DNA from: Patescibacteria group bacterium UBA3466
Lineage (GTDB): Bacteria; Patescibacteriota; Minisyncoccia; Phycocordibacterales; UBA918
Direction: 5' to 3'
Assembly: GCA_002378195.1 (NCBI GenBank)
Contig: DFRJ01000002.1
Location: 329,677-393,676 of the forward strand
Length of the DNA: 64,000 nucleotides
Positions 2,576-36,631 of the stretch are shown piece by piece. Below the pieces are notes generated by a model, which made no database searches, was not told the DNA's origin, and saw only the letters and a program-made list of their open reading frames with translations. A program made the position numbers and the translations under genes. Numbering within the stretch: the stretch's first letter is position 1; each line of letters opens with the position of its first letter.

Positions 2576-4540
2576 CTATCCAGTCCAGTTAAAGAGTAAG
2601 ATTGAGAAGTCAGTCAGGTTTACCGACCCATCCAGGTTGATGTCAGCTGGCGGATCCGAATCTCCCCCGTTACTGTTCCACCAGAACAACAAGATCGAGA
2701 AGTCAATCAAGTTAACGCTGCCGTCCCTATTTAAATCAGCGTTAATTGGCAATTCAGCATCCTGTCCTACTCCATAAAAAGTATAGTTTGAGAATTGTGT
2801 TTCCGCTCCACCATCTTGCTCTGACCTAGCCCGAACCTGGTACGTGTCACGACTAAATCCTTGAGTGCTGAGCTCTATACTCCATAGACCTGCACCGTTT
2901 GAGGTTGTCACCAGACTATCGGTAGCGGGCAAATTAATACGACTATTCTCTACTGTCACTGTAGCATTTGGTAGTGCGGAACCAGAAAACGTTACTGTTT
3001 GTCCAGGATCAACCGGATCCGGCGTGACTAATATAGTTGGTGCGATATTAATATTACTCAAAGCAGATGTACGTGCACCAGTCACCGTGAATGATGTGCT
3101 AAAGGTGGAAGATCGAGTGTCGTCACCATCTTCTGCATAGACACCGAAGGTATAAGCCCCTCTAGCAATTTCATCGATAGTAATATCATACTCACCTCGA
3201 CTGTTTGTCCGGGTACTATCTACAAAATTACCATCTACTAATATGGAAACTGTACTGTTGGGGTAAGCATAACCAGACACAACAACCCGACCGTCTCCAC
3301 TTCGATAAGGCGCATCTTCACTTTCAAAACCACCCCCAGCAGACGAGCCTGAGTTACCCCCAGAACCACCTCCGCCTCCTCCGCCGCCTCCTCCGGTACC
3401 ACTAGAACCACCTTCTAGTGGGGCCTCTCCATCGGCTTCACCTTCAGTTCCTCCACCACCATCACCAGTTCCAGTCCCTGAGTCTCCTGATCCAGTACCA
3501 TCACCTTCAGTTGAACCTTCGTCATTGGCTGTACCAGTTGGCTGCTCGTTCACAACAAAGCTAATGATGTAGTCGTCGATATTAAAGTTTCCTTCGTCGT
3601 CGATACATCTAACATAGAAAGTTGCCAACGTTCCCGGCGTCACAGCCACTACCGTTGAATGATAAATCAATCCGGTATTAGAGAATAATTCAGTCATCGA
3701 GCCGAAAGCCGTACCGGCGGTTGTGGAATAGCGACAAAAAGCAAATTCGTCAGTCTCCAGTGAGATTTCCACACTCAAGGTCGTACCTCCCACTGTACTA
3801 GTCGGCGACCCGTTAAAACGATACGGCGGTATCTCTTCGGTAGTATCAATGTTCGGCATCGATACGCGCCTATTTAAAAAGATTACAAAATCTGCGTTAG
3901 CCACCAAGCCACCGTCATATATCTCCATCTGCACATCATGCCGACCAAGTACCGAACTATTAACTATCGGCTCCACATCAGCAGCGGTAGTGGTGGTACC
4001 GGTACTAGTACTGAATCCTGTAGAAGCGGCATTGGCAGTACCGGTATGACTACCGATCCTTAACTCGAGATTAGAGCTAGAAGAAATTCCTGAGTCAGGT
4101 GCCAGAGTATAGCGAATAAAACCTGGGCTCCCAGTTGTAATATCTACCCCGTCCACCCCAGGCGAAGGTGTGGTCGTAGACACTCTCGGTACACCATCTA
4201 CAAACAGCTGTACATTTCGCACATCAAAAGTAGAAGTGGCCAGGATCTCAAAACCGTCTGGAGGAGTGACTTCTATTTGGCTACTCGGTGAAATATCAGT
4301 ATTAAGTACGAATGATAGCGTATGATTGGCCGGAGCGTTTGGTGCCGAATCAGAAATAACATCACTATACTCTAAGATATTTACTGCCGCAGCCTCATTT
4401 GGGAATAGCACAAACACCCAACTCAGCAAAAGAGCCGCGGCTATAGCCAAAAACTTGTATCGGTTGGATACTAAATTCATATTTAATATATTGTACCTTG
4501 TAGACTGCGGTTTTTTTGTCGCATTACACAGTTGTAGCAA
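2576..4540 (-). CDS. Secreted protein with a Gly-rich linker, Ig-like region and a C-terminal type-I dockerin (two Ca-binding repeats)
   Basis: The N-terminus is a signal peptide. A long Gly stretch (GGGGGGGGGGSGG) follows. The C-terminus has DLNRDGSVNLIDFSILLFWW and DINLDGSVNLTDFSILLFNW, which match the dockerin DxNxDGxVNxxD-helix repeat pair. Confidence 0.65.
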   Translation of the reverse strand: MLQLCNATKKPQSTRYNILNMNLVSNRYKFLAIAAALLLSWVFVLFPNEAAAVNILEYSDVISDSAPNAPANHTLSFVLNTDISPSSQIEVTPPDGFEILATSTFDVRNVQLFVDGVPRVSTTTPSPGVDGVDITTGSPGFIRYTLAPDSGISSSSNLELRIGSHTGTANAASTGFSTSTGTTTTAADVEPIVNSSVLGRHDVQMEIYDGGLVANADFVIFLNRRVSMPNIDTTEEIPPYRFNGSPTSTVGGTTLSVEISLETDEFAFCRYSTTAGTAFGSMTELFSNTGLIYHSTVVAVTPGTLATFYVRCIDDEGNFNIDDYIISFVVNEQPTGTANDEGSTEGDGTGSGDSGTGTGDGGGGTEGEADGEAPLEGGSSGTGGGGGGGGGGSGGNSGSSAGGGFESEDAPYRSGDGRVVVSGYAYPNSTVSILVDGNFVDSTRTNSRGEYDITIDEIARGAYTFGVYAEDGDDTRSSTFSTSFTVTGARTSALSNINIAPTILVTPDPVDPGQTVTFSGSALPNATVTVENSRINLPATDSLVTTSNGAGLWSIELSTQGFSRDTYQVRARSEQDGGAETQFSNYTFYGVGQDAELPINADLNRDGSVNLIDFSILLFWWNSNGGDSDPPADINLDGSVNLTDFSILLFNWTG

Positions 4541-7602: not shown

Positions 7603-8859
7603 TTATCTGGCTTTAACCCTTTTCAGATCTGACCACTGAGTCGTATAAGCTGGTGACCTGGTTTCTGATCTTGATTGCCACTCAGCTTTTTTCAGCCGAC
7701 TTCCGATCTGCACCAATTCACTATCCGCTTTCTCATTTAAAATATCGATAGAACTCATGAGGTCTCTCCTGTCTTCTTCTTTGCAATCATTAAACATAGT
7801 AGTCTGACTTCCTCCAGCCGGCACCAAATTAGATAAGCTAACTCCGACTTTTTTATAGGGCACATCTGGCTCATAGAGCCGCTCCACCAAGTTGCTGGCG
7901 ACTTTCATTAAACTAAGTGTATCGCTAGTTGGGTTGATAAATATCGTTTCATCTGAGCCTCCTCTTAGTAGAAAATCTCCATGTCGATTAGTTCCCAGAT
8001 AAACTCTAATATTCAGTGTTTCTTTAGCTATTCTTCGCAGATCTTCTGCTACATGCCGCACATGATAAGCTACTGCATCTTGCAATACCGCCAGCTCCTT
8101 TGTCTCAACTTTGAAGGATCTTGAACTTAAAATACTCTTTTGTTTTCGATCACCCTGCTCTATCAACAAAGCCGGTTCACTACGCAGTTCAGACTGTATT
8201 CTAAGTCCATTTATACCGAATAATTTAGCCACCACCGACCGATCTAGCGCTGTTAAATCAGCCACTGTTTTTAAACCATGCGATCGATAATTGAGCTCGG
8301 AACTAGCGCCCAGTCCCCATATTTCCGCCAATCTTATACCGTCCACCAATCCGTCCCACTCAGTTTCTCCAATAACCCTTACACCTACGCCTTTTTTGGC
8401 TACGGCGTTGGCGTACTTTGCCTGAGTCTTGGTGAGAGACACGCCAATCGAAACGGGTATACCAACCTCTTGCAAGATGATTGATCTCAGATTATTAGCA
8501 ATATCTTCCACCTCAGCCTCTGGCGGTAAAGTAAAGAATGCTTCGTCGACTGAATACTGCTCAACGTTTGCCAGCTCTCGCTTCACTACCTCAAAAACTC
8601 GCTTTGAGATATCTCGATACAGAGCCAAATGCGAAGAGAACGTTACAATTCCCTCTTTTTTAACAATGTCCTTTATCTTAAAATAAGGGACACCCATAGG
8701 GACACCTATGTCCTTTACTTCTTTAGAGCGAGCCACTACACAGCCGTCATTACTTGATAAAACCAGTACCGGAACATTCTTTAATTCGGGCCTAAAGAGT
8801 CTTTCGCAGGATACAAAAAAATTATTACAATCTAACAATCCGATCCACTGCTTTTTCAT
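7603..8859 (-). CDS. umuC: Y-family translesion DNA polymerase, UmuC-like (Pol V catalytic subunit)
   Basis: N-terminal LLDCNNFFVSCERLFRPEL...VLSSNDGCVVARS matches UmuC (LCDVNAFYASCE...VLSNNDGCVIAR). The catalytic SVDEAF motif is present. The C-terminus YTTQWSDLKRVKA matches the UmuC C-terminus YTTRWSDLLRVK. Confidence 0.85.
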   Translation of the reverse strand: MKKQWIGLLDCNNFFVSCERLFRPELKNVPVLVLSSNDGCVVARSKEVKDIGVPMGVPYFKIKDIVKKEGIVTFSSHLALYRDISKRVFEVVKRELANVEQYSVDEAFFTLPPEAEVEDIANNLRSIILQEVGIPVSIGVSLTKTQAKYANAVAKKGVGVRVIGETEWDGLVDGIRLAEIWGLGASSELNYRSHGLKTVADLTALDRSVVAKLFGINGLRIQSELRSEPALLIEQGDRKQKSILSSRSFKVETKELAVLQDAVAYHVRHVAEDLRRIAKETLNIRVYLGTNRHGDFLLRGGSDETIFINPTSDTLSLMKVASNLVERLYEPDVPYKKVGVSLSNLVPAGGSQTTMFNDCKEEDRRDLMSSIDILNEKADSELVQIGSRLKKAEWQSRSETRSPAYTTQWSDLKRVKAR

Positions 8860-8898: not shown

Positions 8899-10110
8899 TT
8901 AGAAGAGTTTCCACATTTTTTGATCTTCCTCCCCGTCCACCTTGAATACTGCCACCCCCTTGAGGCCATAATCTTCCGCCAACTCGACCTTTTCTTCGAT
9001 TGCTTTAGCGTCACTCCAAGTGATCATTCTGACTGGAATTTCAATACCAGCATAAGTAGCCACCAGAAGAGCTTTAGCCGCTGCTTCAAATCCTTTTGGT
9101 GTATCGTCTGGAGTAGGTAAAGCATTAAAAATTTGCCAAGGGGAATCATCAGGGAAATAGGTTATCACCGCCTCGCCACCATCTGTCCTACCGATTGGTG
9201 AATCGTATTTATCAGCCAGCTCTAGTATCCTAGGCTGGTTTAAAGTAGCCACTAAATCATAGTCTTTGTACCATTCTGGAGCGACAGTAACATCCCAAGC
9301 CCGGCCATAGGTAGCCACTCCGAGCATCACCTTATCTTCATCAAAATCATCCAGAGCAAATTCAACAACTTTCTCCGCCCAATCGATATCAGCTACTGGA
9401 TTGTAAGGCACACCTCGCCTTTCATTATTCAGTTTAATATCAGCTCTCTGCTGGTCATAAGCCATAATTTCTACCCAATCGCAGTGGCGGTTTATAGCTC
9501 GGTAATCATTTGCATATTCAATCTCCGCTGGGACAGCGCGAAACCGTGACTCAGGTGGAGTTCTGGCTTCGATCGTACAAGTCAGCTCGTCTCTTCCCAG
9601 CTCATCCTCCAGCTCTTCTAAAAACTCAGAAAAGTAATCAATGGTTTCGGCCAGCTTTGATTCATAGTCGATGTTGATACCATCAAAATCATTACGCTTA
9701 ACCAGCCTGACGATATCGTCTATATGATCTTCTCTTAAATCATTATCACTTAAGACACTATGTATCGCCTCACCATCAAACCACGCAATGGTTGGAATCA
9801 CCTCAACTCGTCGATCTTCAGCTTCATCCAACAAGTCGTCCCAATGATCATCGTCAAAATCGACACGATTTTTTATATCTCCCAATCCTTCCACCTCATA
9901 AACAAACGGATAAATAATATCGATATCCCTAATGTTATCTAGAGCACTTTCAACACCAGCCTCATCAGCCCACCACGGTATCCAGACACCCACTTCTTGC
10001 CGAGCCTCAGCCACTGCTGGCAAGAAGAAAAAACCGGCTAAAATAATGCCGACATAGAGATGTAGTAATGTATTAACTGATGATCTCATATTCTTTAAGA
10101 CGCAAATCAT
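8899..10110 (-). CDS. Glycoside hydrolase family 18 (chitinase-like) secreted or membrane-anchored protein
   Basis: N-terminal TM/signal. The GH18 catalytic motif FDGINIDYE (DGxDxDxE) is present. MLGVATYGRAW (the YGR region) and GLKGVAVFKVDGEED (C-terminal GH18 motif) are also present. Confidence 0.7.
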   Translation of the reverse strand: MICVLKNMRSSVNTLLHLYVGIILAGFFFLPAVAEARQEVGVWIPWWADEAGVESALDNIRDIDIIYPFVYEVEGLGDIKNRVDFDDDHWDDLLDEAEDRRVEVIPTIAWFDGEAIHSVLSDNDLREDHIDDIVRLVKRNDFDGINIDYESKLAETIDYFSEFLEELEDELGRDELTCTIEARTPPESRFRAVPAEIEYANDYRAINRHCDWVEIMAYDQQRADIKLNNERRGVPYNPVADIDWAEKVVEFALDDFDEDKVMLGVATYGRAWDVTVAPEWYKDYDLVATLNQPRILELADKYDSPIGRTDGGEAVITYFPDDSPWQIFNALPTPDDTPKGFEAAAKALLVATYAGIEIPVRMITWSDAKAIEEKVELAEDYGLKGVAVFKVDGEEDQKMWKLF

Positions 10111-10139: not shown

Positions 10140-10589
10140 TTACAACAAAGTACGCGCGCTACCCGTCACCACACCCCAAATATAACAATCCTCCATCTCA
10201 TTAACTGCAATTGGTTCATAACCGACCTGCTCGGAGACCAACACCATAGCCCCAGATATCATTTTTAGGCGCTTTACCACCATTTCACCATACACTGCTG
10301 CCACCACAATATGACCATCTTTTGGTGTGACTGATCTGTCCACCACCAGGATATCGTTATCAAAAATCTTGGCTCCTTCCATCGAATCACCAGATACACG
10401 CACAAAAAAGGTGGCCGACTCGTTTTGCACTAGCAAATCATTGATGTTTAGTGACTTTTCCACTAAATCATCACCGGGAGCAGGGAAACCGGCGGCAGGC
10501 TGGCTGGCATACAAAGGATGTTCTGTAGCCTGATTTATATCAGCCATTGAGATGCTTTTAACTACAGTTTCTTTAGGCTGGTTGCTCAT
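10140..10589 (-). CDS. umuD: UmuD-like S24 peptidase (LexA C-terminal-domain fold without an N-terminal HTH)
   Basis: Ser-Lys dyad context: VRVSGDSMEGAKIFDNDILVVD ... VVKRLK. The likely autocleavage site is AAG|F. At 149 aa it has no room for a DNA-binding domain. Confidence 0.75.
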   Translation of the reverse strand: MSNQPKETVVKSISMADINQATEHPLYASQPAAGFPAPGDDLVEKSLNINDLLVQNESATFFVRVSGDSMEGAKIFDNDILVVDRSVTPKDGHIVVAAVYGEMVVKRLKMISGAMVLVSEQVGYEPIAVNEMEDCYIWGVVTGSARTLL

Positions 10590-11837: not shown

Positions 11838-14800
11838 TTAGTCGATATCGACGTTCGAATCAAGGTCTTCTCCTTCAAAGTCAGGATACTCCTCGCTTCC
11901 CGGACAAACTATATCATTGATCTTCCAACGCGTTGTTTTGTAAACAAATCCAGTTGGGTCACTGTGCGGAACAATTCCCTTCTCAAACCAAGGAACTAGG
12001 ATTTCGTCGCTGTAGTTCAATTGGAATTGCTTAACGGCTGCGTCTGTCGCTGCGTCAAACTCACCAGTTACCGCCACGTCGTAGCCCATTACGATACTGA
12101 GGAACATCTGTAGCTTAGTCACTTCCCAACGATCATTTTCCCATCCAACTTGCATGAAATCGATAATGAATGGGCACTGATTCACAGTCGAAGCACCGAG
12201 TACAATTCCTTCTGGAGCTGGTTCAGTTGTTCTGGTTCTAGTTCCAGATGAACTACCGCCAGATGAAGTTTCTTCCTCAGGCTCTTCTGGTTCTTCAGGC
12301 TCTTCTTCCACCACCTGATTTACAAAGTCACAACGGTTACCTTCGTAGATTGGCTCATCAATAACGATCAGAGCCGACAAGCTGTTTCCAATTGTAGTGA
12401 AAATTGATTCGTCCTCGATATAGAACTCACACGACATACTGTCAGTGTCTCCAGTTAACACCTGTAGGTTCTGTCTCACTTCTACTTGCTCATAACCAGC
12501 TGGCATCGCTTCAACCACCACATAGTCATCGCCAAGCAATACGTCGAAGTAATAGTAACCAGTATCATCGGTTGAAGTTGAGGCGATTACATTACCTTCT
12601 CCATCTTCTAGGTAGATAGTCCATCCAGCTTCAGGAACTTCTTGCGCATCTACTAACAAGTACTTGTAACCATCGATTCTTTCAGTCGGCTCTTCAGACA
12701 GAGCGTTGTAGAAGTCACATGTGTATGGTGTCTCATCGTCCATAGACAAGCCTTCGCTACCATACTGCTTTGGATCAAATTCTAGATAACAAGATTCGTA
12801 ACCTTCGCCATTAATGAAGTCATACTCACCTTCATACTCGACTCCGACCTGGTACCAGCCTAGTTGCATAACTTCTGAGACTTCATAATCTCCAACTGGT
12901 GCGTAGAAGTAGTAGTAACCACTGTCGTCAGTTGTAGTTGAGGTGATAAGTTCTTGGTCTTCGTAAAGCTCAATTGTCCAGCCAGCTAGCGGTGTTGCGT
13001 ACTCTGGATCGCCTTCAAACTTATAACCTTCGATCAACATCATGTCTGACGTATCATCGTCACAAGGAACGATAGTTTCTTCATGAATGTCAAAACGGAA
13101 TCCGTCAGATTGAGTATCGACCCACAGTCGGAAGTCTACTCCGTCATAATCTGGAGTCGCGACATCTGAACCATCGTCAGTCGGAACGTTATTAGTTTCA
13201 GAGTGATTCTCTAGCTTGAAACTACCTGAAAGATTACTGAAGTTAGTAATTCCTGCGTCTCGTACTTCAATTCGAGCGTCAATCCATTCATTGTTGGTAT
13301 TACCTCCAGGATTATGCTTACCGTACAACGCCACCTTAACTGTTCCACCTTCTCGACTCACAAACAGACCTGATTTATTACCTGGGTCATCGAAGTTAGT
13401 CACCGTGTGCGGGTCGTTGATCATGGTTGCTGAGGTCTCTCCAGATTCGATAATAGAAACTGGGAACCATTCACCAAATTCAACTGTAGTGTAAGCAGCA
13501 TCACCAAGGATAACTTGCTCATTTAAATGTCCGTTACCAGTATTACCAGTTTCATTCAAGATTACTCGTGCTTCCACAGTCGCCTTACATTCCGGACAGT
13601 TATACTCTTCACCATTGTTTACCTCCACAGCCACAGCGTCTTCACCAGTGGTTAGGTAAAACTCGAAATCTACTCCCTCGTCACCATTCTTATCGAAGAT
13701 GTCAGGATAGCTACTATCCTCAGGATCCTCTAGTTCCCAACCAGGAACCGGACCTCGATCTACTGCCCCAAGATCAATACCTTGAGTCATAATGTTTCCA
13801 AAGGCATAATCGAACTGAGATCCATTATTTCCTCCGCTGATAGCTAACCGGAGATCAGTGCCGTTTCTTTCAACTGCAATTCCGTCCACATCAAGCGCAA
13901 AGCTATTGATAGTTGCATCTCCCACCTCGTCAAAATTGAACCAGGTTCCGGCAGGAATCACATTGTCTTCGTCTCCTAGGTAAATATTCCCATCAAATGA
14001 TACTGATTCAGGAGCATTATCAAGCGAGATCTTTACTAGACGTAAGTCAGTACACTGATTGTCGAGCGTACAATAATCTGTACAGTCGGTGTCACCCGGC
14101 TCACACATTTCCCATCCAGTTACTTCACCGTCACCACAATAAGAGGCGTAGTCTGGCTCCTCAGGCTCTGGCACGTAAGGAATCTCACACAAATCTCCTT
14201 CACCTTCAATTACCAGTTCGTAATACAGTCCAGCCGGGTTATTGGCAGGATTACTGTTACCTGCAAAATTTTCCACCACTACCGACAATTCGTTATTTCC
14301 ACTCTGAATTAGGCCAGTAACATCATACTCCTTAGTAGCAGTATGGTTCACACCACCCAATTCTTCTCCGGCCAGAGCGTCGTTTAGTGAGGCAGAGAAA
14401 TTATTGTCAGCCGCGATATACAGGGTAGCTTCAGTCAAAACGTCACCATTCCAACCAAATTGATTTACAAAAGTCTGTGTTTCTGACTCACTCGGGTTTT
14501 GCGGACCTTGATCTCCCCAGATCCACTCTGCAAGTGGCAATGATTCAGTCCAATTGTCATGGATAAAATCTAGCACTACTGCAAGAGCTCCGTCCTTTTC
14601 AACCACCGTATTTGTATCATCACTCTTAATTGTCACTGTACACTGGGTTGGTACTTCTGGCTCTTCACAGCTTCCGTCAATAATAGTAATCGCGTCAAGA
14701 TCGAAACCGTCACCGTTTGATCCTTGCACACCATTTGACTGGTCCACCAACTTAACAAACTTAACAAAGTCCAGATTGGTATCAGCAATATCAACAGTTC

Positions 14801-17551: not shown

Positions 17552-18136
17552 TTATATACGTAACTTCTCAGTATTTAATACATTTTGTAGCTGCTTTTTG
17601 CCTCGATGCAATAGCGTACCCACTGACCCCACCGGTATCTTCAAAATATCAGATATCTCATCGTATTCTTTATGTTCAAAAAAACGCAATATGATTACTT
17701 CTCGATACTTATTATCAAGCTGTAGCAATGCTCTATTTAAAACCTCCGCATTGATACCCTGGTCAAACACCACGTCCGCGGCATCTTCCTTCGCGCTCAA
17801 AAAAGAAATAACTTCTTCTCCATCAGCGATCAAATGTCCTTCAGGACGCACATTCTTCTTCCGATACCAACTAATCGCCTCATTGTGGGCAATCCGATAG
17901 ACCCACGAAGAAAACTTCAGAGAAGTATCGAAGCCATTGATATTGCGATAGGTTTTCAAGAAAATGTCTTGTAGGACATCACTTTGGTCTTCTGGATCCC
18001 GTACACCTAGACGGGCGATATACCTAGTTAATTTTGCTTGATAGCGATCCACCAAAACACCAAAGTGCTCTTTGTCACTAATAGTTAACTTTACGATCTC
18101 TTCATCGCTTGGTGGAAGTTCGGGTGTACCGTCCAT
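17552..18136 (-). CDS. ECF-type sigma-70 family RNA polymerase sigma factor
   Basis: Region 2 (DVLQDIFLKTYRNINGF...WVYRIAHNEAISWYRKK). Region 4 HTH (REVIILRFFEHKEYDEISDILKIPVGSVGTLLHRGKKQL). Confidence 0.8.
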   Translation of the reverse strand: MDGTPELPPSDEEIVKLTISDKEHFGVLVDRYQAKLTRYIARLGVRDPEDQSDVLQDIFLKTYRNINGFDTSLKFSSWVYRIAHNEAISWYRKKNVRPEGHLIADGEEVISFLSAKEDAADVVFDQGINAEVLNRALLQLDNKYREVIILRFFEHKEYDEISDILKIPVGSVGTLLHRGKKQLQNVLNTEKLRI

Positions 18137-22699: not shown

Positions 22700-23197
22700 C
22701 TATCCACACAAGATTTTCCACCAAAACGGAAACTCGGTCCGAATCACAGTCATAAGTAGCTCTTGATTACGAGCGCCAATATCTGGCAACCACGCACTAC
22801 ACTCCATGACCACTCGACTAGACTTATCCCAGGTATTATCTACAACATGTGACACGTGCACAATGTCATCATCGCCGTACCAAATGACGGAACAAAAACC
22901 ATGCCTCAAACCTTGGTTGACGATTTGATCACGGAAATAATCAATACTGGTCAGTATTTCATTACGCTCATCCAATGACAGAGCGTTCTCACCTGTACCA
23001 GTATCAAACGCCAACAAGAAAATCGGTGCGGATTCGGGAAAACCTTCTGGAGTAACAGACAGAGTCAACAAACCTCTCTCAGTCACTCCACACTCATTAG
23101 CCACTGCTCGCAACTTACTCCTGATTAGATATATTTTTAATAGACCATCAAGCCGATTGAGAAGATTACCCGCATAACGCAAAACTGATTGGAACAT
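22700..23197 (-). CDS. Hypothetical cytoplasmic protein (165 aa), first of a run of small orphan genes
   Basis: ORF with a diverged copy of the conserved leader (TCCTCGCTATTCGCGCATTAG) immediately upstream. Confidence 0.45.
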   Translation of the reverse strand: MFQSVLRYAGNLLNRLDGLLKIYLIRSKLRAVANECGVTERGLLTLSVTPEGFPESAPIFLLAFDTGTGENALSLDERNEILTSIDYFRDQIVNQGLRHGFCSVIWYGDDDIVHVSHVVDNTWDKSSRVVMECSAWLPDIGARNQELLMTVIRTEFPFWWKILCG

Positions 23198-23289
23198 TAC
23201 TAATCCTCGCTATTCGCGCATTAGATAATAAAAAGGTACTAGAACCATCAATATCTTGCAACAAAAAAGCCGCATAGGCTCTTTTGTCC

Positions 23290-23805
23290 TTAGCGGCTGT
23301 TAATTAATACGAACTGGTGACGACAGCGTTTGCCATAGATCAACGCGTTATGGTGAAAGATCTCGACCAGGTTCATTGCTCGACTGCTTGGCGACCAGAT
23401 GAGAAATTCAATAATCGACAGATCATTTCCTGATTCATCTTCCGATATTCCCACCCTGAAAGCATAAGTGTCATTTAGCCGGTACACACCGGTTGTACCC
23501 TTCCACTCCACTTCCAAAGGATGATTAATGAAGGCTTGAAACGCCTCTTCAATTAACCCACGGTCACCCTCTTCCGTATTGCAGGCTACGCACGAATCTA
23601 TAGCATTGATTACCTCATTTTCACCACTCAAACTTGGGCCGGGAAAATGAGCAATAAAATTCATGGCGAACTTGTCGGTAAACTCAATTGATTCAGCGAG
23701 GCTTGCAACTGTATTACACATCAGCTGCACCTGAACACTGGTATCTGGCGGTAAATCGACCTCGACTTCGATATATGATTCTTGTACCTTGTCCTGTTCA
23801 ATCAC
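23290..23805 (-). CDS. Hypothetical acidic cytoplasmic protein (171 aa), GTG start, preceded by the conserved leader and RBS
   Basis: AGGAG lies 6 nt upstream of the GTG. A terminator hairpin (AGCCGC...GCGGCTTTTTTG) lies downstream at about 23245-23285. Confidence 0.45.
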   Translation of the reverse strand: MIEQDKVQESYIEVEVDLPPDTSVQVQLMCNTVASLAESIEFTDKFAMNFIAHFPGPSLSGENEVINAIDSCVACNTEEGDRGLIEEAFQAFINHPLEVEWKGTTGVYRLNDTYAFRVGISEDESGNDLSIIEFLIWSPSSRAMNLVEIFHHNALIYGKRCRHQFVLINSR

Positions 23806-23851
23806 TATTAACTCCTCGCTTTCGCGTAGTTAAGAGTTTTTTAAGATACTG
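23806..23851 (-). promoter_or_regulatory. Conserved ~46-nt leader (minus strand: CAGTATCTTAAAAAACTCTTAACTACGCGAAAGCGAGGAGTTAATA), copy 1, containing the RBS and a CGCGAAAGCG mini-hairpin
   Basis: It is near-identical to 24587-24632, and a diverged copy lies at 23198-23225. Confidence 0.6.
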
Positions 23852-24076
23852 TAGCAATCTAGATAATGCAAATCACAGCATACCCTACTGACCAAGCAGG
23901 TCAGCTGCCTCTTCTGCACCATTAATCATTTCGTTGTATTCCCGCCTTTGCTCAGCCATAGTTTTACCCTCGGTAGACTGATTGGCGCTGGTCATCCACC
24001 ATATTGCAAAAGCAGTTACGAATAAAATAGAAATTAAACTGAATACTCTCATTGAGTTAGTTTACTATATAAAAAT

Positions 24077-24099
24077 GCCGGCGAGCAAAGCTCGCCGGC
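24077..24099 (-). terminator. Terminator hairpin GCCGGCGAGC-AAA-GCTCGCCGGC followed on the minus strand by ATTTTTATAT (for the 24143-24586 gene)
   Basis: Read directly from the sequence. Confidence 0.6.
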
Positions 24100-24142
24100 C
24101 ACCGCACCACCCTCAGTGCTTTCTTGGCATCTTCACAAAGTG

Positions 24143-24586
24143 TCACCAGATTCTTTCAGATAATGCCGCCACTGCTGTGCAAGCTTCCTGAAGCCTGTCA
24201 CCCTGACCAGAAAAACAAAATGCTACTACGGAATCTGCATTGGCATGCCAAAAATCAACCTCCCAGTAAGCAAAAAAGACGGATCCTCCGGCACAATCAT
24301 AGAGTGCCAAGTCTTCAAATTTATGCCTCTGATTAATGTACTCGTCCATAATGACTCCTACATGCGCCTTGAGCTCATCAGATACAGGTAGCAGCAAATT
24401 GGGGTAAACAACCCAATCTTTGTAAGTCACTGACTGATTGCAATCAACCTGAGACGGATACGCCACCTGATAAGCAACGGTCAGCTCACCCTCAAAGCCT
24501 GCCTGATCAATTGCTTGTGCGATCTCATAATTCAAAATGAACACTTTCTCGATTTGCAAGTAACCCTCATCAGCTACAGTCCGCAT
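24143..24586 (-). CDS. Hypothetical cytoplasmic protein (147 aa) preceded by the conserved leader and RBS
   Basis: ATG start with AGGAG 6 nt upstream. No homology was recognised. Confidence 0.45.
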   Translation of the reverse strand: MRTVADEGYLQIEKVFILNYEIAQAIDQAGFEGELTVAYQVAYPSQVDCNQSVTYKDWVVYPNLLLPVSDELKAHVGVIMDEYINQRHKFEDLALYDCAGGSVFFAYWEVDFWHANADSVVAFCFSGQGDRLQEACTAVAALSERIW

Positions 24587-24632
24587 TTCTAACTCCTCGC
24601 TTTCGCGTAGTTAAGAGATTATTAGGATACTG
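24587..24632 (-). promoter_or_regulatory. Conserved ~46-nt leader, copy 2 (minus strand: CAGTATCCTAATAATCTCTTAACTACGCGAAAGCGAGGAGTTAGAA)
   Basis: It matches 23806-23851 over a 29-nt core (TAACTCCTCGCTTTCGCGTAGTTAAGAG), with 4 mismatches in the full 46 nt. Confidence 0.6.
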
Positions 24633-24704
24633 CAAACAATACGCTCTAGCAAATAAAAAAGCTGCTAGAGATACCTCCAGCAGCCTACCGACAGCTTACA
24701 GTGA

Positions 24705-25211
24705 TTAATTCACCATTTTTTGCCGTACTCTAGCCCAGTGCCTATCAATGGATTTTTGTGTTGCCTCCCACAGACAACGCTCCGGATTAGATGTTAGATA
24801 CTTAGTAAAATGTTCCAGATTAGTACCGTCAAATGATCTCAGTAGCACCATCAAGATTGAGACCCCGGGCCAACCCTCTTTATACATCCAAACGTTATCC
24901 AGTACCTGACCAGACACGCTCTTGGCAACCACTTTGCCTGCGCAAATATCCTGATAGAGCCTAGGCAAAGAACCAGGGCCATCTCTCAATATTTGACGGT
25001 CTCCACTATCACAATCTGGACTATAGCCCTGCATCACGTAGTGATAACCAGGGTGACTATTCCAAGGACCAGGCTCATAGCGAGCAATGCATATTTCATA
25101 ACCTACCCTGTCATTTTTTTGCACAACGTTAGCGTGTTTAAAAATATTCACCACCTCAAGAGACAGAGTAGTACCATCTCCCAGATAGTTTAAAGCGTAT
25201 GGGTTAGACAT
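24705..25211 (-). CDS. Hypothetical cytoplasmic protein (168 aa)
   Basis: ORF with its own terminator hairpin downstream (GCTGCT..AGCAGC plus T-run at about 24650-24690). It is not leader-associated. Confidence 0.45.
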   Translation of the reverse strand: MSNPYALNYLGDGTTLSLEVVNIFKHANVVQKNDRVGYEICIARYEPGPWNSHPGYHYVMQGYSPDCDSGDRQILRDGPGSLPRLYQDICAGKVVAKSVSGQVLDNVWMYKEGWPGVSILMVLLRSFDGTNLEHFTKYLTSNPERCLWEATQKSIDRHWARVRQKMVN

Positions 25212-25275
25212 TTCATGCCTCCAAAGAACTTAATAACTAGTAAACTTAGTACCTAAAATTTATGACATTGTCAAT

Positions 25276-25305
25276 AAAAGGCCGGGGCGAAGCTCCGGCC
25301 TTTTT
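25276..25305 (-). terminator. Intrinsic terminator AAAAGGCCGGGGCGAAGCTCCGGCCTTTTTG after typA
   Basis: It is near-identical to the terminator at 20201-20230. Confidence 0.7.
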
Positions 25306-25306
25306 G

Positions 25307-30141: not shown

Positions 30142-30180
30142 CAAAAAAATGGCTTCGCGCATATACATGCGCGAAGCCAT
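30142..30180 (-). terminator. Strong intrinsic terminator: a 14-bp-stem perfect hairpin (ATGGCTTCGCGCAT-ATAC-ATGCGCGAAGCCAT) followed on the minus strand by T8
   Basis: Read directly from the sequence. It lies downstream of the GC-rich ORF. Confidence 0.7.
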
Positions 30181-31067: not shown

Positions 31068-31181
31068 TGGTGCAAGGATGCGCCTCGCAAAGAAAGCGGA
31101 GAAGACAGGATTCGAACCTGCTCACGGTAAAATAATCTCCCAGATTATTTTACCCCACACACGCTTTCCCCTGCAGTGCGG
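31068..31181 (-). repeat. 114-nt repeat A, copy 1. It is tRNA-like: a T-arm-like GCAGGTTCGAATCCTGT plus an acceptor-like 3' strand, a perfect 12-bp hairpin (GGTAAAATAATC-TGGGA-GATTATTTTACC), and ...TTGCACCA at its minus-strand end
   Basis: It matches 31993-32106 with 1 mismatch. I could not fold it as a complete tRNA: no 5' acceptor strand is present. Confidence 0.6.
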
Positions 31182-31272
31182 GCGGTCTCGAGTTAGGACC
31201 GTGTGATACCAAGCCCTGCTTGACCGACTCAACGATATTTTGGATTTAAACCGATAGTGCCTCGAGCACTTA

Positions 31273-31869
31273 CTACAATGAAGCTTCAAACTCTTTTTTA
31301 AACACCGCTAATACATACTTTGAAATTGCGTAGATGCCTAAAATATGACTTTCAGTTTCATTGAAGGACCAACTTCTACAATGCAATAGAGTATCGTTAT
31401 AGTTTTTATCTGAATGGGCACCCTCCTTATTCGCAACCGATCTTATCAGTTCTCTTATGGTAATTTGTTCCTTGAAAAGGATTTGATCAACCCATTCATC
31501 CACCGACATTTCTTCCATTTCCTTTGAGAAGAGTAAAGTGAATATAGGTATTGTTTCATTTATTACCTCCAACCTGCCTGGCATCACATTCTGTAAACCA
31601 TTTAGTAACGATGGTGTGTTTTCAAGTATTTTTACAAAGTGGAGTTTATGTAACTTAAAATCTGGAATGATACGATTTATAAGTGGAGAAGGGTTCGTTT
31701 CACACAGTAACTTTCTTAGCTCAACTGCCATTGGTTGATATGTGAGAAAATTACCTGCTTCATAGGTTCCAATGTGAGTTTCGAGAAGTGTGAAACTATT
31801 TTTTAAATCCTGTTTGTTCTTTTCTGAAGCGCTCATGCCGTCATTATAAACAAAACCAGCACGAAACAT
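31273..31869 (-). CDS. Hypothetical low-GC protein (198 aa), the cargo between repeat A copy 1 and the tRNA-Ser 3' fragment
   Basis: ORF with no family recognised. It sits inside the tRNA-associated repeat structure. Confidence 0.5.
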   Translation of the reverse strand: MFRAGFVYNDGMSASEKNKQDLKNSFTLLETHIGTYEAGNFLTYQPMAVELRKLLCETNPSPLINRIIPDFKLHKLHFVKILENTPSLLNGLQNVMPGRLEVINETIPIFTLLFSKEMEEMSVDEWVDQILFKEQITIRELIRSVANKEGAHSDKNYNDTLLHCRSWSFNETESHILGIYAISKYVLAVFKKEFEASL

Positions 31870-31893
31870 AGTGTCTCGTGCTAGCTCTAAACG

Positions 31894-31942
31894 GCGGAGA
31901 GTGAGGGATTCGAACCCTCGATACGATTTCTCGTATACATCC
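31894..31942 (-). repeat. 49-nt direct repeat of the 3' part of tRNA-Ser(GGA) (variable arm, T-arm and acceptor 3' strand); an att-like scar
   Basis: It is identical to 32104-32152 of the intact tRNA. Confidence 0.7.
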
Positions 31943-31992
31943 GCCGACCTGATTTTTAAGGAGGCACGACTATAAAAATGGAAGTGCCCTAG

Positions 31993-32106
31993 TGGTGCAA
32001 GGATGCGCCTCGCAAAGAAAGCGGAGAAGACAGGATTCGAACCTGCTCACGGTAAAATAATCTCCCAGATTATTTTACCCCACACACGCTTTCCCTTGCA
32101 GTGCGG
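31993..32106 (-). repeat. 114-nt repeat A, copy 2, abutting (3-nt overlap) the 3' end of intact tRNA-Ser
   Basis: See copy 1. Confidence 0.6.
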
Positions 32107-32190
32107 AGAGTGAGGGATTCGAACCCTCGATACGATTTCTCGTATACATCCTTTCCAAGGATGCGCGATCGACCACTCTGCCAACTCTCC
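32104..32190 (-). tRNA. tRNA-Ser (anticodon GGA), type II with long variable arm; the 3' CCA is not encoded
   Basis: The minus strand reads GGAGAGT-TG-GCAGAGTGGTCGATCGC-G-CATCC-TTGGAAA-GGATG-TATACGAGAAATCGTATC-GAGGG-TTCGAAT-CCCTC-ACTCTCC-G. The anticodon loop is TTGGAAA. A variable-arm hairpin is present. Confidence 0.75.
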
Positions 32191-32325: not shown

Positions 32326-33231
32326 TTAATTTTGTTTTCCATCCATTCCCCTTAGTTTTGCAATCCGGTCGGTGGCTGGCGGGTGAGTAGCGAACAAACC
32401 ATTAATTTTCTGCATTACTCCCCTGCTGCGCTCTTGAAATGGATCAGAAATAAACAAATGAGCAGTGGCATGTGAAGCTTTTTGCATCGGTCGGGCAGTG
32501 GCGCTAATTTTCTCCAGCGCTGACGCCAAACCTTCAGGATACCGAGTAAGCAACGCTCCAGTAGCATCTGCTAGATACTCACGCTTCCTAGAGATGGCTA
32601 GCTGTATCAGCTTGGCCGCAATCGGTGCCAGGATAATCCCTACAATACCAATCAATAAGAAAGCCGGATGTCGATCACGATTGTTGCCGCCACCGTAAAT
32701 CAACGTGCGCGAAAGCACATCAGCCACGATCGCTACAAAGCCAGCCAACACTACCGCCACGGTCATCACCAACATATCTCGATTGCCAACATGAGCCAGC
32801 TCGTGCGCCATCACCCCCTCGAGTTCGTTGCGATCCAAGAGCTCCAAGAGGCCGGTAGTAGCGGCTACCACGGCGTGTTCTGGGTCTCGCCCAGTCGCAA
32901 ACGCATTGGGCGCCGGATCATCGACAATGTACACCCTTGGCATCGGCAAGCCAGCAGTAATAGATAGATTTTCGACGATGTTATAAAGCTCTCTCGCCTC
33001 TTCTCTGGTCGCTGGCTTGGCGTTCGTCATCCGCAACACGATCTTATCTGAGTACCAATAGCTTCCGATACTGGTCACAAGCGCCATAATCGCACCAATG
33101 TACAAAATAGCTGGATTGCCCATATACCAAGACACCCCGTAACAAATAGCAATCACCATCACCGCAAAAAAACCCATCAACATGAAGGTTTTCATGACAT
33201 TATTCGATTGTTGGGTATATAAAGTCGACAT
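32326..33231 (-). CDS. htpX: Zinc metalloprotease HtpX (M48 family)
   Basis: HELAHVGNRD zinc motif. TM topology and length fit. The start may be the internal MKTF at about 33195. Confidence 0.85.
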   Translation of the reverse strand: MSTLYTQQSNNVMKTFMLMGFFAVMVIAICYGVSWYMGNPAILYIGAIMALVTSIGSYWYSDKIVLRMTNAKPATREEARELYNIVENLSITAGLPMPRVYIVDDPAPNAFATGRDPEHAVVAATTGLLELLDRNELEGVMAHELAHVGNRDMLVMTVAVVLAGFVAIVADVLSRTLIYGGGNNRDRHPAFLLIGIVGIILAPIAAKLIQLAISRKREYLADATGALLTRYPEGLASALEKISATARPMQKASHATAHLFISDPFQERSRGVMQKINGLFATHPPATDRIAKLRGMDGKQN

Positions 33232-33236
33232 TGTTT

Positions 33237-33270
33237 GTTACGTAGCATGTTACGTAACATGCTACGTAAC
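33237..33270. promoter_or_regulatory. Perfect 34-bp palindrome GTTACGTAGCATGTTACG|TAACATGCTACGTAAC (three TACGTA cores 12 bp apart) immediately upstream of htpX
   Basis: Read directly from the sequence. The half-site TTACGTAGCATG resembles TAACGCGCATG at 381-417. Confidence 0.55.
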
Positions 33271-33293
33271 AACACCACATTCGCCTCAAAGCA

Positions 33294-33683
33294 CTACAAA
33301 GGAATGCCCTGCACGCTTTCGTTAGAACGGTAGTCAACATCCGCCGACCAGTGCAGGTAGTAGCCATGTTTATAACCTCCCTTCTCTAACAAATTAGCCT
33401 TTCTGGCTTCAATTAGTTGTTCTTTTGGTATATCCAATTGCTTGATCAAGGTTTCTAGCACTACCATCAAGTCGCTGTATTCCTCCAAAAACTCCTCCTT
33501 GCTTCTGGACATTGCTAGAGACGCCGCCTCTTCCTGAATTTTCTTGAATAATTCCTGTTGCAGTTCTTGAACATCGGTGATATTCCGCACCTCACACTCT
33601 TGGTGCTTAGCCTCGATCTTGGCTGGAATATTATCGCGAATAAGCTTGTTGTAGTAGACTCGATTGATTTCAGACATAGTCAC
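33294..33683 (-). CDS. Small all-alpha protein, possibly a MazG/HisE-like nucleotide pyrophosphohydrolase
   Basis: The N-terminus (VYYNKLIRDNIPAKIE) resembles the KLVRDxIP motif of MazG-like NTP-PPases. The match is weak. Confidence 0.4.
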   Translation of the reverse strand: MTMSEINRVYYNKLIRDNIPAKIEAKHQECEVRNITDVQELQQELFKKIQEEAASLAMSRSKEEFLEEYSDLMVVLETLIKQLDIPKEQLIEARKANLLEKGGYKHGYYLHWSADVDYRSNESVQGIPL

Positions 33684-34276
33684 TAGAATTGTACTTTTAC
33701 ATTCTCCCGTTCTTCTGAACCCTCTTCTAATTCGAAGAATTCCTTAGCTTTAAACTTGGAAAACATTGCTGCCACCATATTTGACGGGAAGGTTTCGAGC
33801 GCAATCGCTAGATCACGCACATTCGTGTTGTAGAAGCGTCGCGCAGCCTGAATCTTGTTTTCAGTGTCTGACAGTTCACGCTGTAGTTCGAGGAAGTTGG
33901 TATTGGCTTTCAAATCTGGATAGTTCTCAGCTACTGCCAATAGTCGGCTAAGTGCACCGCTCAAGGCTGACTCAGCGCCCGCCATAGCAGCGATTTGTTC
34001 TGGAGTCACATCACCGGCATCAATGTGGGTTGAAGTTGCTTGTGCTCGCGCCGCTGTTACCTGATCGAGCGTTTCTTTTTCGTGCGCAGCATAACCTTTA
34101 ACAGTCTCGATCAGATTTGGAATCAAGTCGTACCGACGCTTCAGCTGCACATCAATATCAGCCCAAGCTTCTTCAGCTCGCTTGATCAAGCGAACAAATT
34201 TGTTGTATGCCCCAATAACATAAAGAGCGATTACAACTAAAACAATAATGAAAATCCACAATGGGTTCATAAACAA
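33683..34276 (-). CDS. lemA: LemA family protein
   Basis: N-terminal TM, then GAYNKFVRLIKRAEEAWADIDVQLKRRYDLIPNLIETVKGYAAHE, which is the LemA signature. The LemA-HtpX adjacency is typical. Confidence 0.8.
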   Translation of the reverse strand: MFMNPLWIFIIVLVVIALYVIGAYNKFVRLIKRAEEAWADIDVQLKRRYDLIPNLIETVKGYAAHEKETLDQVTAARAQATSTHIDAGDVTPEQIAAMAGAESALSGALSRLLAVAENYPDLKANTNFLELQRELSDTENKIQAARRFYNTNVRDLAIALETFPSNMVAAMFSKFKAKEFFELEEGSEERENVKVQF

Positions 34277-36456: not shown

Positions 36457-36515
36457 ATCTTTCTTTAATAAAGTATTAAGAACTAATTTTTAAATTTCTC
36501 TTCAAATATCAGGTT

Positions 36516-36581
36516 GCGACAACAAAATCAATCGTGCTCATGTCGCGCCGGTATTATACTGATCATAGAACGCTAATGCAA
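36516..36581 (-). promoter_or_regulatory. groESL promoter (TTGCAT-N17-TATAAT) followed by an inverted repeat GCGACA-N19-TGTCGC at the predicted TSS/5'UTR (not CIRCE)
   Basis: The minus strand reads TTGCATTAGCGTTCTATGATCAGTATAAT at 36553-36581. The IR arms are at 36516-36521 and 36541-36546. Confidence 0.5.
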
Positions 36582-36631
36582 TTACTACCAAGCCTTGCCT
36601 ATGCTGACCATTTCTGCTAATATCTGTCGGC

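Follow-up and report, generated by a model that had tools for sequence, protein, structure and literature searches.

Regulators of the AbrB/MazE type form dimers of swapped-hairpin N-domains and bind to the promoters of their own genes. The AbrB protein of B. subtilis is known for its lack of a clear consensus, and the E. coli mazEF promoter reportedly carries an 'alternating palindrome', as the title of a 2001 paper by Marianovsky et al. has it. In the CIRCE/HrcA system, a highly conserved inverted repeat is located just before the start codon of stress genes and is found across wide phylogenetic distances. The operator of YefM-YoeB consists of paired palindromes with hexameric cores 12 bp apart, which lie close to the regulator start codon and are bound sequentially by dimers (PMC1802561). 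The small palindromic repeats termed REPs are found for the most part downstream of coding regions, in the spacers between unidirectional or convergent ORFs, and can be recognised by a GTAG or CGTC tag that stays unpaired at one end (PMC3733652); a high copy number is a further defining feature.

In Patescibacteria (Candidate Phyla Radiation), genomes are tiny and hardly any gene regulation has been characterised. The site described here is a palindrome located immediately upstream of htpX in a 64 kb stretch of marine patescibacterial (Paceibacteria/Kaiserbacteria-like) DNA; this whole stretch was analysed and is referred to as the window. The features of the locus are as follows.

32326..33231, minus strand: htpX, encoding an M48 zinc metalloprotease of 301 aa (Pfam PF01435, E=3e-33)
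33235..33272, no strand: three-unit array forming a perfect 38 bp palindrome (GYTACGTARC units with 2 nt linkers)
33236..33247, no strand: unit 1, TGTTACGTAGCA, with one change relative to the consensus unit TGTTACGTAACA
33248..33259, no strand: unit 2, TGTTACGTAACA, a perfect 12 bp palindrome at the centre of symmetry
33260..33271, no strand: unit 3, TGCTACGTAACA, the reverse complement of unit 1
33294..33683, minus strand: upstream, co-directional gene of 129 aa, weakly PRA-PH/MazG-like (sub-threshold NCBIfam match to phosphoribosyl-ATP diphosphatase, E=4e-4)
33683..34276, minus strand: lemA, first gene of the cluster of lemA, the 129 aa gene and htpX (Pfam PF04011, E=5e-59)

The order on the minus strand is groES, groEL, two U-tract terminators, lemA, the 129 aa gene, the palindrome, htpX and tRNA-Ser, with both of these terminators lying between groEL and lemA. 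No Pfam match was obtained for the product of the 129 aa gene. Homologues of the window HtpX carry Paceibacteria or Kaiserbacteria names.

An earlier note on this DNA had reported a perfect palindrome of 34 bp upstream of htpX. The 34-mer GTTACGTAGCATGTTACGTAACATGCTACGTAAC was located at 33237–33270 and is indeed perfectly palindromic, but its true extent is 38 bp, from 33235 to 33272, with TTGTTACGTAGCATGTTAC and GTAACATGCTACGTAACAA on either side of the centre. The three TACGTA cores with 12 bp spacing were confirmed at 33239, 33251 and 33263, and an independent call by Tandem Repeats Finder gave a period of 12 bp and 3.0 copies with the consensus TGTTACGTAACA. All three units match GYTACGTARC exactly (33237–33246, 33249–33258 and 33261–33270) and both 2 nt linkers are AT. 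A perfect palindrome of 38 bp is far beyond chance in 64 kb, since simple arithmetic gives an expectation of approximately 64000 x 4^-19, and no further copy of the 12 bp unit was found within the 64 kb window. A sequencing or adapter artefact was rejected because the palindrome is identical across at least six independent assemblies spanning the site, is intergenic and is absent from viral contigs.

The distance between the palindrome and htpX depends on the start codon, for which the earlier note had considered both the annotated position and a downstream alternative. The annotated start (ATG at 33229–33231) gives a protein beginning MSTLYTQQSNN, and the N-terminus M-A/S-T-L-Y-T-Q/H-Q (MATLYTQQ..N..KT) is kept in dozens of HtpX homologues. 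Judged by this conservation, the annotated start is the true start, which leaves 3 nt between the end of the 38-mer and the ATG. On the other side, 21 nt separate the stop codon of the 129 aa gene from the palindrome. The htpX gene has neither a Shine–Dalgarno sequence nor a usable −10 box before its start. A promoter scan detected no acceptable −35/−10 pair at or upstream of the palindrome, and no recognisable −10 box is present between the array and the htpX ATG or upstream of the array. A sigma-70 or ECF promoter inside the palindrome was also rejected, as neither the scan nor inspection by eye produced an acceptable hexamer pair. Since there is no usable promoter between the 129 aa gene and htpX, htpX is probably co-transcribed from upstream. 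Many other genes of the window have a TATAAT-like box 6–9 nt before the ATG and no Shine–Dalgarno sequence, which suggests leaderless expression. The region upstream of groES (36457–36600) contains a promoter, read by eye as TTGCAT-17-TATAAT, and no copy of the palindrome motif or of CIRCE.

The occurrence of the motif elsewhere was investigated by scanning JGI metagenome contigs with the pattern TGTTACGTA-N6-TACGTAACA, in which the inner six bases are free. At least 118 contigs matched. The free bases were RCATGY (GCATGC, ACATGC, GCATGT or ACATGT) in 103 of the 132 matches listed (binomial P~1e-281). Among these listed matches the flanks of the sites are unrelated to one another, and the exact 38-mer of the window recurs once in L152 and twice in L195, which are unrelated contigs. 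Sequence comparison across the contigs establishes the motif as a real, conserved family that includes the window site. Where motif contigs could be named, their proteins carry Moranbacteria, Magasanikbacteria or Paceibacterota names, and the BipA proteins of three motif contigs are 64–67 % identical to BipA of the window. The motif has no match in 2.9 million viral contigs (IMG/VR) and none in 610 kb around htpX from 80 other Paceibacteria genomes, and one match is listed on each of seven contigs longer than 100 kb.

Two units were present in 98 and three units in 22 of 120 non-redundant sites among the matches listed. In the same set, 112 of 142 linkers are AT, and the linker dinucleotide is the variable position. 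Among these listed sites, 55 of the 120 arrays are not perfect palindromes overall and yet retain intact units, which points to recognition of the array unit by unit, independently of hairpin formation. Palindromy extends by at least 4 bp into the variable flanks at 15 % of sites as compared with 1.5 % in a shuffled control (P=4e-13); hairpin-templated correction or a selected cruciform is suspected as the origin of this extension. The 3′ flanks of the listed sites are A-rich across the family. No larger gene family recurs beside the listed sites, whose neighbours are unrelated housekeeping genes. Three further candidates were rejected. Paired sites enclose ordinary genes (thioredoxin/DsbD, SDR and NYN), contrary to a cassette or recombination module. 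For a phage origin, there were 0 matches in IMG/VR and a looser scan for triple TACGTA produced only unrelated 12 bp tandem repeats. Lastly, approximately 13 of 118 sites have a tRNA within 300 nt, which by a rough estimate does not clearly exceed expectation.

These data also bear on a proposal of the earlier note that the palindrome shares a half-site with a palindrome at 381–417 and with a terminator at 30149–30180, in which case one regulator would act on all three sites within a stress regulon. This explanation is very improbable. The resemblance is limited to the short strings CGCGCAT and GCATG, which were seen by eye. The consensus TWACGYRGCATG misses 381–417 when two mismatches are allowed, and an alignment can be obtained only with an indel. 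A pattern search of the window with TWACGYRGCATG at up to two mismatches gave 12 matches where 23.9 were expected. Support was also lacking for the composite motif TWACGYRGCATG-N(8-9)-CATGCYRCGTWA, and the window has no further unit of the real motif. The 381–417 element had in addition been transcribed with a wrong last base: the sequence ends ...TTATAG and its perfect arms are 382–397 and 401–416. Both this element and 30149–30180 are terminator-like hairpins in which a GC-rich stem is followed by a T-rich tail, each located just after a minus-strand stop codon, and both passed the terminator scan of the window whereas the focal palindrome did not. The proposed kinship with the 381–417 and 30149–30180 elements is thus not upheld. 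Nor is a stress or heat-shock regulon, given that the motif does not adjoin stress genes at other loci and that the groES promoter has no copy.

To identify proteins associated with the motif, small ORFs adjacent to motif sites were clustered, and this analysis found a family of approximately 52 aa with the consensus MKKYIRKVTRVGKRSLSVVIPAEIVDELKIRERQKLV..RSGKKIIIEDWKK. The Pfam domain PF04014 (MazE/SpoVT-AbrB domain) matched nine of ten members, the first at 27.4 bits against a cut-off of 24.7, and a profile of the family matched the AbrB N-domain structures 1Z0R, 2K1N and 1YFB at E~8e-4. An AlphaFold model of the 52 aa protein (pLDDT 82) has the order strand-strand-helix-strand-strand, and the best PDB matches of this model in Foldseek were AbrB-N, SpoVT, MazE and VapB, with query-normalised TM scores of 0.7–0.8. 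Profile and model together show a predicted AbrB/MazE/SpoVT fold, with the protein, referred to as mini-AbrB, being essentially the AbrB N-terminal domain alone. There are 1626 database relatives of the family and all those with names are Patescibacteria.

The start of the 52 aa gene lies 8–68 nt from the motif, with the gene pointing away, at 16 of the 120 sites among the matches listed. Homologues were present in 19 of the 118 motif loci listed and in none of 87 non-motif loci fetched through htpX (Fisher P=3e-5). In L195, one copy of the 38-mer identical to that of the window is located 22 nt upstream of a mini-AbrB gene. In a protein-first test, homologues were picked by protein sequence alone and the motif was looked for afterwards. 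Six of the seven genes have a two- or three-unit array just upstream, its end no more than about 20 nt from the ATG; the seven were arranged as follows.

P0281 (L256): array of three units, its end 10 nt upstream of the ATG
P0237 (L261): array of two units, separated from the ATG by 8 nt
P0304 (L263): likewise two units, separated from the ATG by 8 nt
Paralogue of P0304 (L263): TACGCA/TGCGTA cores in a variant array, separated from the ATG by 9 nt
P0253 (L264): three units, followed by 5 nt, TATACT, 7 nt and the ATG
P0263 (L264): arranged like P0253
P0273 (L262): array on the other side of the gene, 10 nt past its stop codon

These counts show a clear association, at the level of gene order, between the motif and the mini-AbrB gene. 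The earlier note had suggested an operator for a symmetric, cooperatively binding regulator, and this part of its interpretation is strengthened by the position of the motif upstream of a gene for an AbrB/MazE-fold protein of 52 aa at the 16 motif-selected loci and at six of the seven protein-selected ones. A TATACT or TATAAT box is present between the array and the ATG in L264, L195, L166 and L162, and the array ends 5–10 nt upstream of this −10 box, in the spacer/−35 zone, in L264, L195 and L166. The order of array, −10 box and ATG at mini-AbrB genes fits classical autorepressor geometry, and the leaderless expression suggested for window genes fits the same arrangement.

It is reasonably probable that the 38 bp palindrome upstream of htpX is a three-unit predicted operator array for a mini-AbrB protein. 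Mini-AbrB is the most likely cognate protein because the motif elsewhere directly precedes the mini-AbrB gene. Being identical to the array before the regulator gene of L195, the window site is, by that comparison, a full-strength copy of the motif. A tblastn search detected no mini-AbrB homologue within the 64 kb window, and the window site is therefore an orphan. We infer that mini-AbrB binds the motif and that a mini-AbrB gene is present in the genome from which the window derives.

The proposed mechanism is as follows. Each unit would be a 10 bp palindrome, GYTACGTARC, with 2 nt linkers, usually AT, putting the centres 12 bp apart, and two or three such units would accommodate dimers next to one another. 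In other genomes, where the array usually precedes the gene of the regulator itself, it would mediate autorepression. A copy of the array was gained between the 129 aa MazG-like gene and htpX, in a tightly packed cluster of a marine Paceibacteria-like genome, where the regulator, if encoded elsewhere in that genome, would bind 3 nt from the htpX start codon. Once bound, it could block RNA polymerase arriving from upstream or occlude any local initiation, and a block at the array would uncouple htpX from lemA and lower htpX expression. Mini-AbrB bound near the htpX ATG would presumably act as a roadblock within the operon, because there is no −10 box at the htpX array.

The locations of sites elsewhere determine how far this proposal can be extended to htpX. 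A first placement count used genes called at 80 aa or longer, so that the 52 aa genes were left out, and placed 37 sites in tandem, 27 in convergent and three in divergent spacers, as compared with a background of 442, 131 and 94, respectively. With genes called at the same threshold, the sites are often located 2–30 nt after a stop codon. Approximately 87 % of sites among the matches listed have no adjoining mini-AbrB gene. When regulator-adjacent sites were removed, the remaining orphan sites were distributed as 30 tandem, 22 convergent and three divergent against the same background of 442, 131 and 94 (P=0.001). Because most of the other sites are orphans at the 3′ ends of genes, regulation of htpX by a mini-AbrB array in the window organism is put forward tentatively, at slightly less than even probability. 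Canonical terminators are found beside motif sites, either before or after them. Some orphan sites lie beyond a canonical terminator, where classical operators do not sit.

The palindrome might also act at the RNA level and form a hairpin in the transcript of lemA, the MazG-like gene and htpX, serving as an intercistronic 3′-end stabiliser or partial terminator for the upstream genes and masking initiation of htpX. The 38-mer folds into a 16 bp stem (−23.7 kcal/mol, z=−7.6) that persists in its sequence context, and it is positioned between a stop codon 21 nt away and, at 3 nt, an ATG without a Shine–Dalgarno sequence; the stem is, moreover, often lengthened by unrelated flank sequence at other sites. 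This hairpin is nevertheless an improbable explanation. The sequence after the palindrome, ACAAUGUCGAC, has no T tract, and the hairpin consequently lacks the U tract of the real terminators in the window and at orthologous positions. In 21 of 86 oriented cases a canonical terminator precedes the motif, which is thus outside the main transcript. Conservation extends to the primary sequence and is not limited to pairing. Of the 120 listed arrays, 55 are imperfect palindromes. The G-U versus A-C asymmetry showed no strand preference (3 vs 3 in tandem contexts), and no Rfam family matched the palindrome. An intrinsic terminator was rejected because the palindrome lacks a following U tract and sites across the family have A-rich 3′ flanks. 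An RNA thermometer was rejected as well: with a stability of −23.7 kcal/mol, the stem would probably not melt at physiological temperature. The earlier note had regarded a purely Rho-independent terminator function as refuting its operator; this does not apply to the focal palindrome, which has no T tract, a feature that genuine terminators here and in relatives possess. The htpX palindrome is neither a heat-shock operator common to nearby hairpins nor a terminator.

A conserved palindrome of low copy number with a 12-2-12 or 10-6-10 architecture could, in principle, be a chromosome-maintenance site such as dif (Xer), parS (ParB) or a similar element, and in L221 the motif lies 13 nt upstream of parA. 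The probability of this explanation is very slight. A replication terminus, where dif would lie, should be marked by a positive-to-negative flip of GC skew or a switch to converging gene orientation; of the 21 loci that have 3 kb or more on either side, none showed such a change, and the cumulative GC skew of the window is monotonic. With respect to parS, ParA/ParB adjoin the motif in one of the 118 loci listed and are not present in the window, and the motif does not match the parS consensus.

The history of the site was examined in seven relatives whose HtpX proteins are 83–85 % identical to that of the window and which have the same order of lemA, a gene of 127–129 aa and htpX. The spacers between the latter two genes are 9, 14, 16, 27 or 44 nt long in the relatives as compared with 62 nt in the window, and the motif is absent from this spacer in all seven. 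Comparison of these junctions shows a gain, and a recent one, of the array at htpX in the lineage of the window, because the seven relatives have no array at the same position. Sites also differ at other orthologous positions: in L238 a site directly follows a conserved bidirectional terminator, and none is present there in L252–255. Arrays differ by exactly one 12 bp unit between near-identical loci (L196/L143 vs L248/250/251), and another single-unit difference was found between L157/L135 and L173. Copies of mini-AbrB have been duplicated or pseudogenised together with their flanks in L179, L217, L235, L174 and L137. The gain and loss of sites, together with varying unit number, fit a mobile or unstable element as well as they fit regulon rewiring. 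Given site gain and loss, unit changes, flank palindromy and the duplicated or pseudogenised mini-AbrB copies, a mobile or unstable component is likely, and it does not exclude a regulatory role.

Taken further, this evidence would make the palindrome a selfish or neutral repeat that spreads in the manner of REPs or MITEs and has no regulatory role at htpX, with the mini-AbrB gene being merely a part or a frequent neighbour of the spreading module. Presence or absence of the site at orthologous positions (the window vs its seven relatives; L238 vs L252–255), one-unit differences between near-identical loci, the duplicated or pseudogenised mini-AbrB copies and the occurrence of the same 38-mer in unrelated contexts are all in keeping with such spread. 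So are the 15 % of sites with palindromy into variable flanks (1.5 % in the control) and the preference of orphan sites for tandem and convergent spacers with avoidance of divergent ones, as reported for REPs (PMC3733652). Against it, the copy number is low (one in the 64 kb window, none in the 610 kb from other Paceibacteria and one listed per contig longer than 100 kb), there is no target-site duplication when 2–5 bp repeats are looked for, no transposase or recombinase recurs nearby and there is no unpaired GTAG or CGTC tag. The motif is also nearly invariant across contigs of Moran-, Magasanik- and Paceibacteria, which points to constraint by a conserved binding protein. A purely selfish or neutral element is for these reasons unlikely, though by no means negligible, and spread of this kind is not exclusive of an operator array. 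A DDE-type mini-transposon was rejected because there is no target-site duplication of 2–5 bp and no recurrent transposase.

An operator array for mini-AbrB, the preferred explanation, provides, for several candidate phyla, a precise and searchable DNA motif that is tied to one particular small protein of the AbrB fold. The motif and mini-AbrB constitute a directly testable regulator/operator pair and a handle for mapping regulons from metagenomes alone, and both the 52 aa protein and the 24–38 bp site are easily synthesised. If the proposal is true, regulons would be rewired by insertion of ready-made operators in organisms with very few regulators, and the membrane-stress protease HtpX would be under roadblock control by mini-AbrB. 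If the orphan sites are functional, operators would be gained by insertion and not by point mutation; if they are non-functional, the family would represent an unusual low-copy mobile palindrome. No account of the motif or of its pairing with mini-AbrB was found in the searchable literature, and the 18-mers and 12-mers of the motif were absent from any relevant paper in the literature search. The locus could, at a confidence that falls short of even, represent an undescribed minimal system in which a 52-residue AbrB N-domain is paired with a near-invariant operator, orphan operators are scattered, arising and disappearing at the ends of genes and inside operons, and htpX is under predicted roadblock control.

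Comparison with described systems places the site close to the AbrB/Abh/SpoVT and MazE/VapB regulators, since the 52 aa protein matches PF04014 and AbrB-N structures and the array before the mini-AbrB gene overlaps the promoter, as expected for autorepression of the AbrB/MazE type. However, mini-AbrB consists of the N-domain alone and lacks the C-terminal tetramerisation domain of AbrB and SpoVT. It also has no toxin-binding tail, and there is no conserved toxin gene downstream. The operator linked to mini-AbrB further differs from those of AbrB/MazE-type regulators in being near-invariant across several candidate phyla and in that most of its copies are orphans, and the window array precedes htpX and not the regulator's own gene as an autoregulatory operator would. 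The three-unit array resembles the 'alternating palindrome' of mazEF, if this is taken as a middle segment that pairs with either flank. The window array and the YefM-YoeB operator both have hexameric palindromic cores 12 bp apart. These two differ in protein fold (AbrB-type as opposed to Phd/YefM), in core sequence, in unit number, which here reaches three, and in context, the window copy not being beside any toxin–antitoxin genes. CIRCE/HrcA is similar in overall length and in position before the start codon of a stress gene, but the focal sequence is unrelated to TTAGCACTC-N9-GAGTGCTAA and at other loci the motif does not lie beside chaperone genes. With REP/REPIN elements the site shares a length of 20–40 bp, palindromic structure, placement, including that of the window copy between two minus-strand genes, and the gain and loss of copies between relatives. 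In contrast to these elements, the window element is fully symmetric with GTAG inside the stem, no RAYT transposase was seen, and the family combines very low copy number with a sequence kept across distant lineages, 12 bp units and an association with an AbrB-type gene.

The motif (two or three GYTACGTARC units spaced 12 bp apart) and the gene for mini-AbrB, its putative 52-aa binder, behaved like a duplicating module in one GC-richer lineage, in which five contigs (L179, L217, L235, L174 and L137) each carried several copies. The module spanned the motif, the mini-abrB gene and, to either side, approximately 40 nt of flanking sequence that is conserved, and some of its copies contained frameshifts, internal stops or truncated starts. 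Two mini-AbrB paralogues were also found in a single Patescibacteria metagenome-assembled genome (L263), where the standard array preceded one paralogue and the variant TGCTACGCAGCATGCTGCGTAGCA preceded the other, while a further copy of the variant was an orphan without an adjoining mini-AbrB gene. The three sites in L263 lay at 9969-9992, 12342-12365 and 17750-17773, and the orphan variant was flanked by pif1 and purM, which are convergent.

On the basis of these sequences, protein and operator specificity may co-vary.

Copies of the motif were also detected at the ends of contigs. The contig DCKL01000019.1 of the NCBI assembly GCA_002320355.1 (L004) ends within the palindrome, 24 nt before htpX, and contig-end sites were likewise present in L148, L219, L234, L205 and L206. 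The shared motif seems to break assemblies. Four independent assemblies (L003 and L005-L007) stop shortly past htpX, in the direction of a tRNA gene with repeats around it.

31068-31181 and 31993-32106: direct repeat of 114 nt, 99% identity
31894-31942: exact second copy of the 3' 49 nt of the tRNA gene
32103-32190, minus strand: tRNA-Ser(GGA)

The partial tRNA copy and the direct repeat, which bracket an ORF of 198 aa that matched no family (within 31068-32190), resemble scars left by integration at the tRNA. As several independent assemblies end there, the region past htpX is suggested to be a strain-variable islet.

The motif followed bipA/typA at three independent loci (L150, L207 and L230), with differing offsets (3 nt past the stop codon, 32 nt past it and beyond the terminator), and by a rough count, given the number of gene families, this recurrence was not significant. 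Only a canonical terminator was found downstream of bipA/typA in the window (25212-25306) and in L038. A unit-like repeat was also present in a 5.4 kb viral contig from IMG/VR (L107), with five tandem GGTTACGTAACC units and two isolated ones at 118-245. These share the 10-bp core of the Patescibacterial unit and are coding, as they fall within a 548-aa ORF, in its 5' part, and encode (GYVT)n; this viral repeat is probably unrelated to the Patescibacterial motif.

Many window genes had a TATAAT-like box 6-9 nt before the ATG and no Shine-Dalgarno sequence (for example at 2488, 4931, 8859, the 19707 region, 44570 and 47664), and only 23 of 58 window ORFs had a Shine-Dalgarno-like match at any candidate start. 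Together these suggest that leaderless mRNAs are widespread in this genome. In contrast to most window genes, at least three of four tandem ORFs share a near-identical leader containing a Shine-Dalgarno sequence, GCGAA(A/T)AGCGAGGA(G)TTA. These ORFs are listed with other genes of the window.

446-1984 and 2576-4540: genes of large secreted proteins (cohesin, dockerin and bacterial Ig-like domains)
2006-2488: Hsp20, between the two secreted-protein genes
7603-8859: Y-family polymerase (UmuC/DinB-like)
10140-10589: S24 peptidase (UmuD/LexA-like, 149 aa)
17552-18136: ECF-type sigma factor
22700-25211: four ORFs in tandem, each 147-171 aa long, no family match

The hairpin at 381-417, which the earlier note had linked to the htpX palindrome, is a terminator-like structure after the cohesin-domain gene. 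The polymerase and peptidase genes are near neighbours, with a GH18 gene between them. After the sigma factor gene comes an ORF of 306 aa that matched no family and is possibly an anti-sigma factor.
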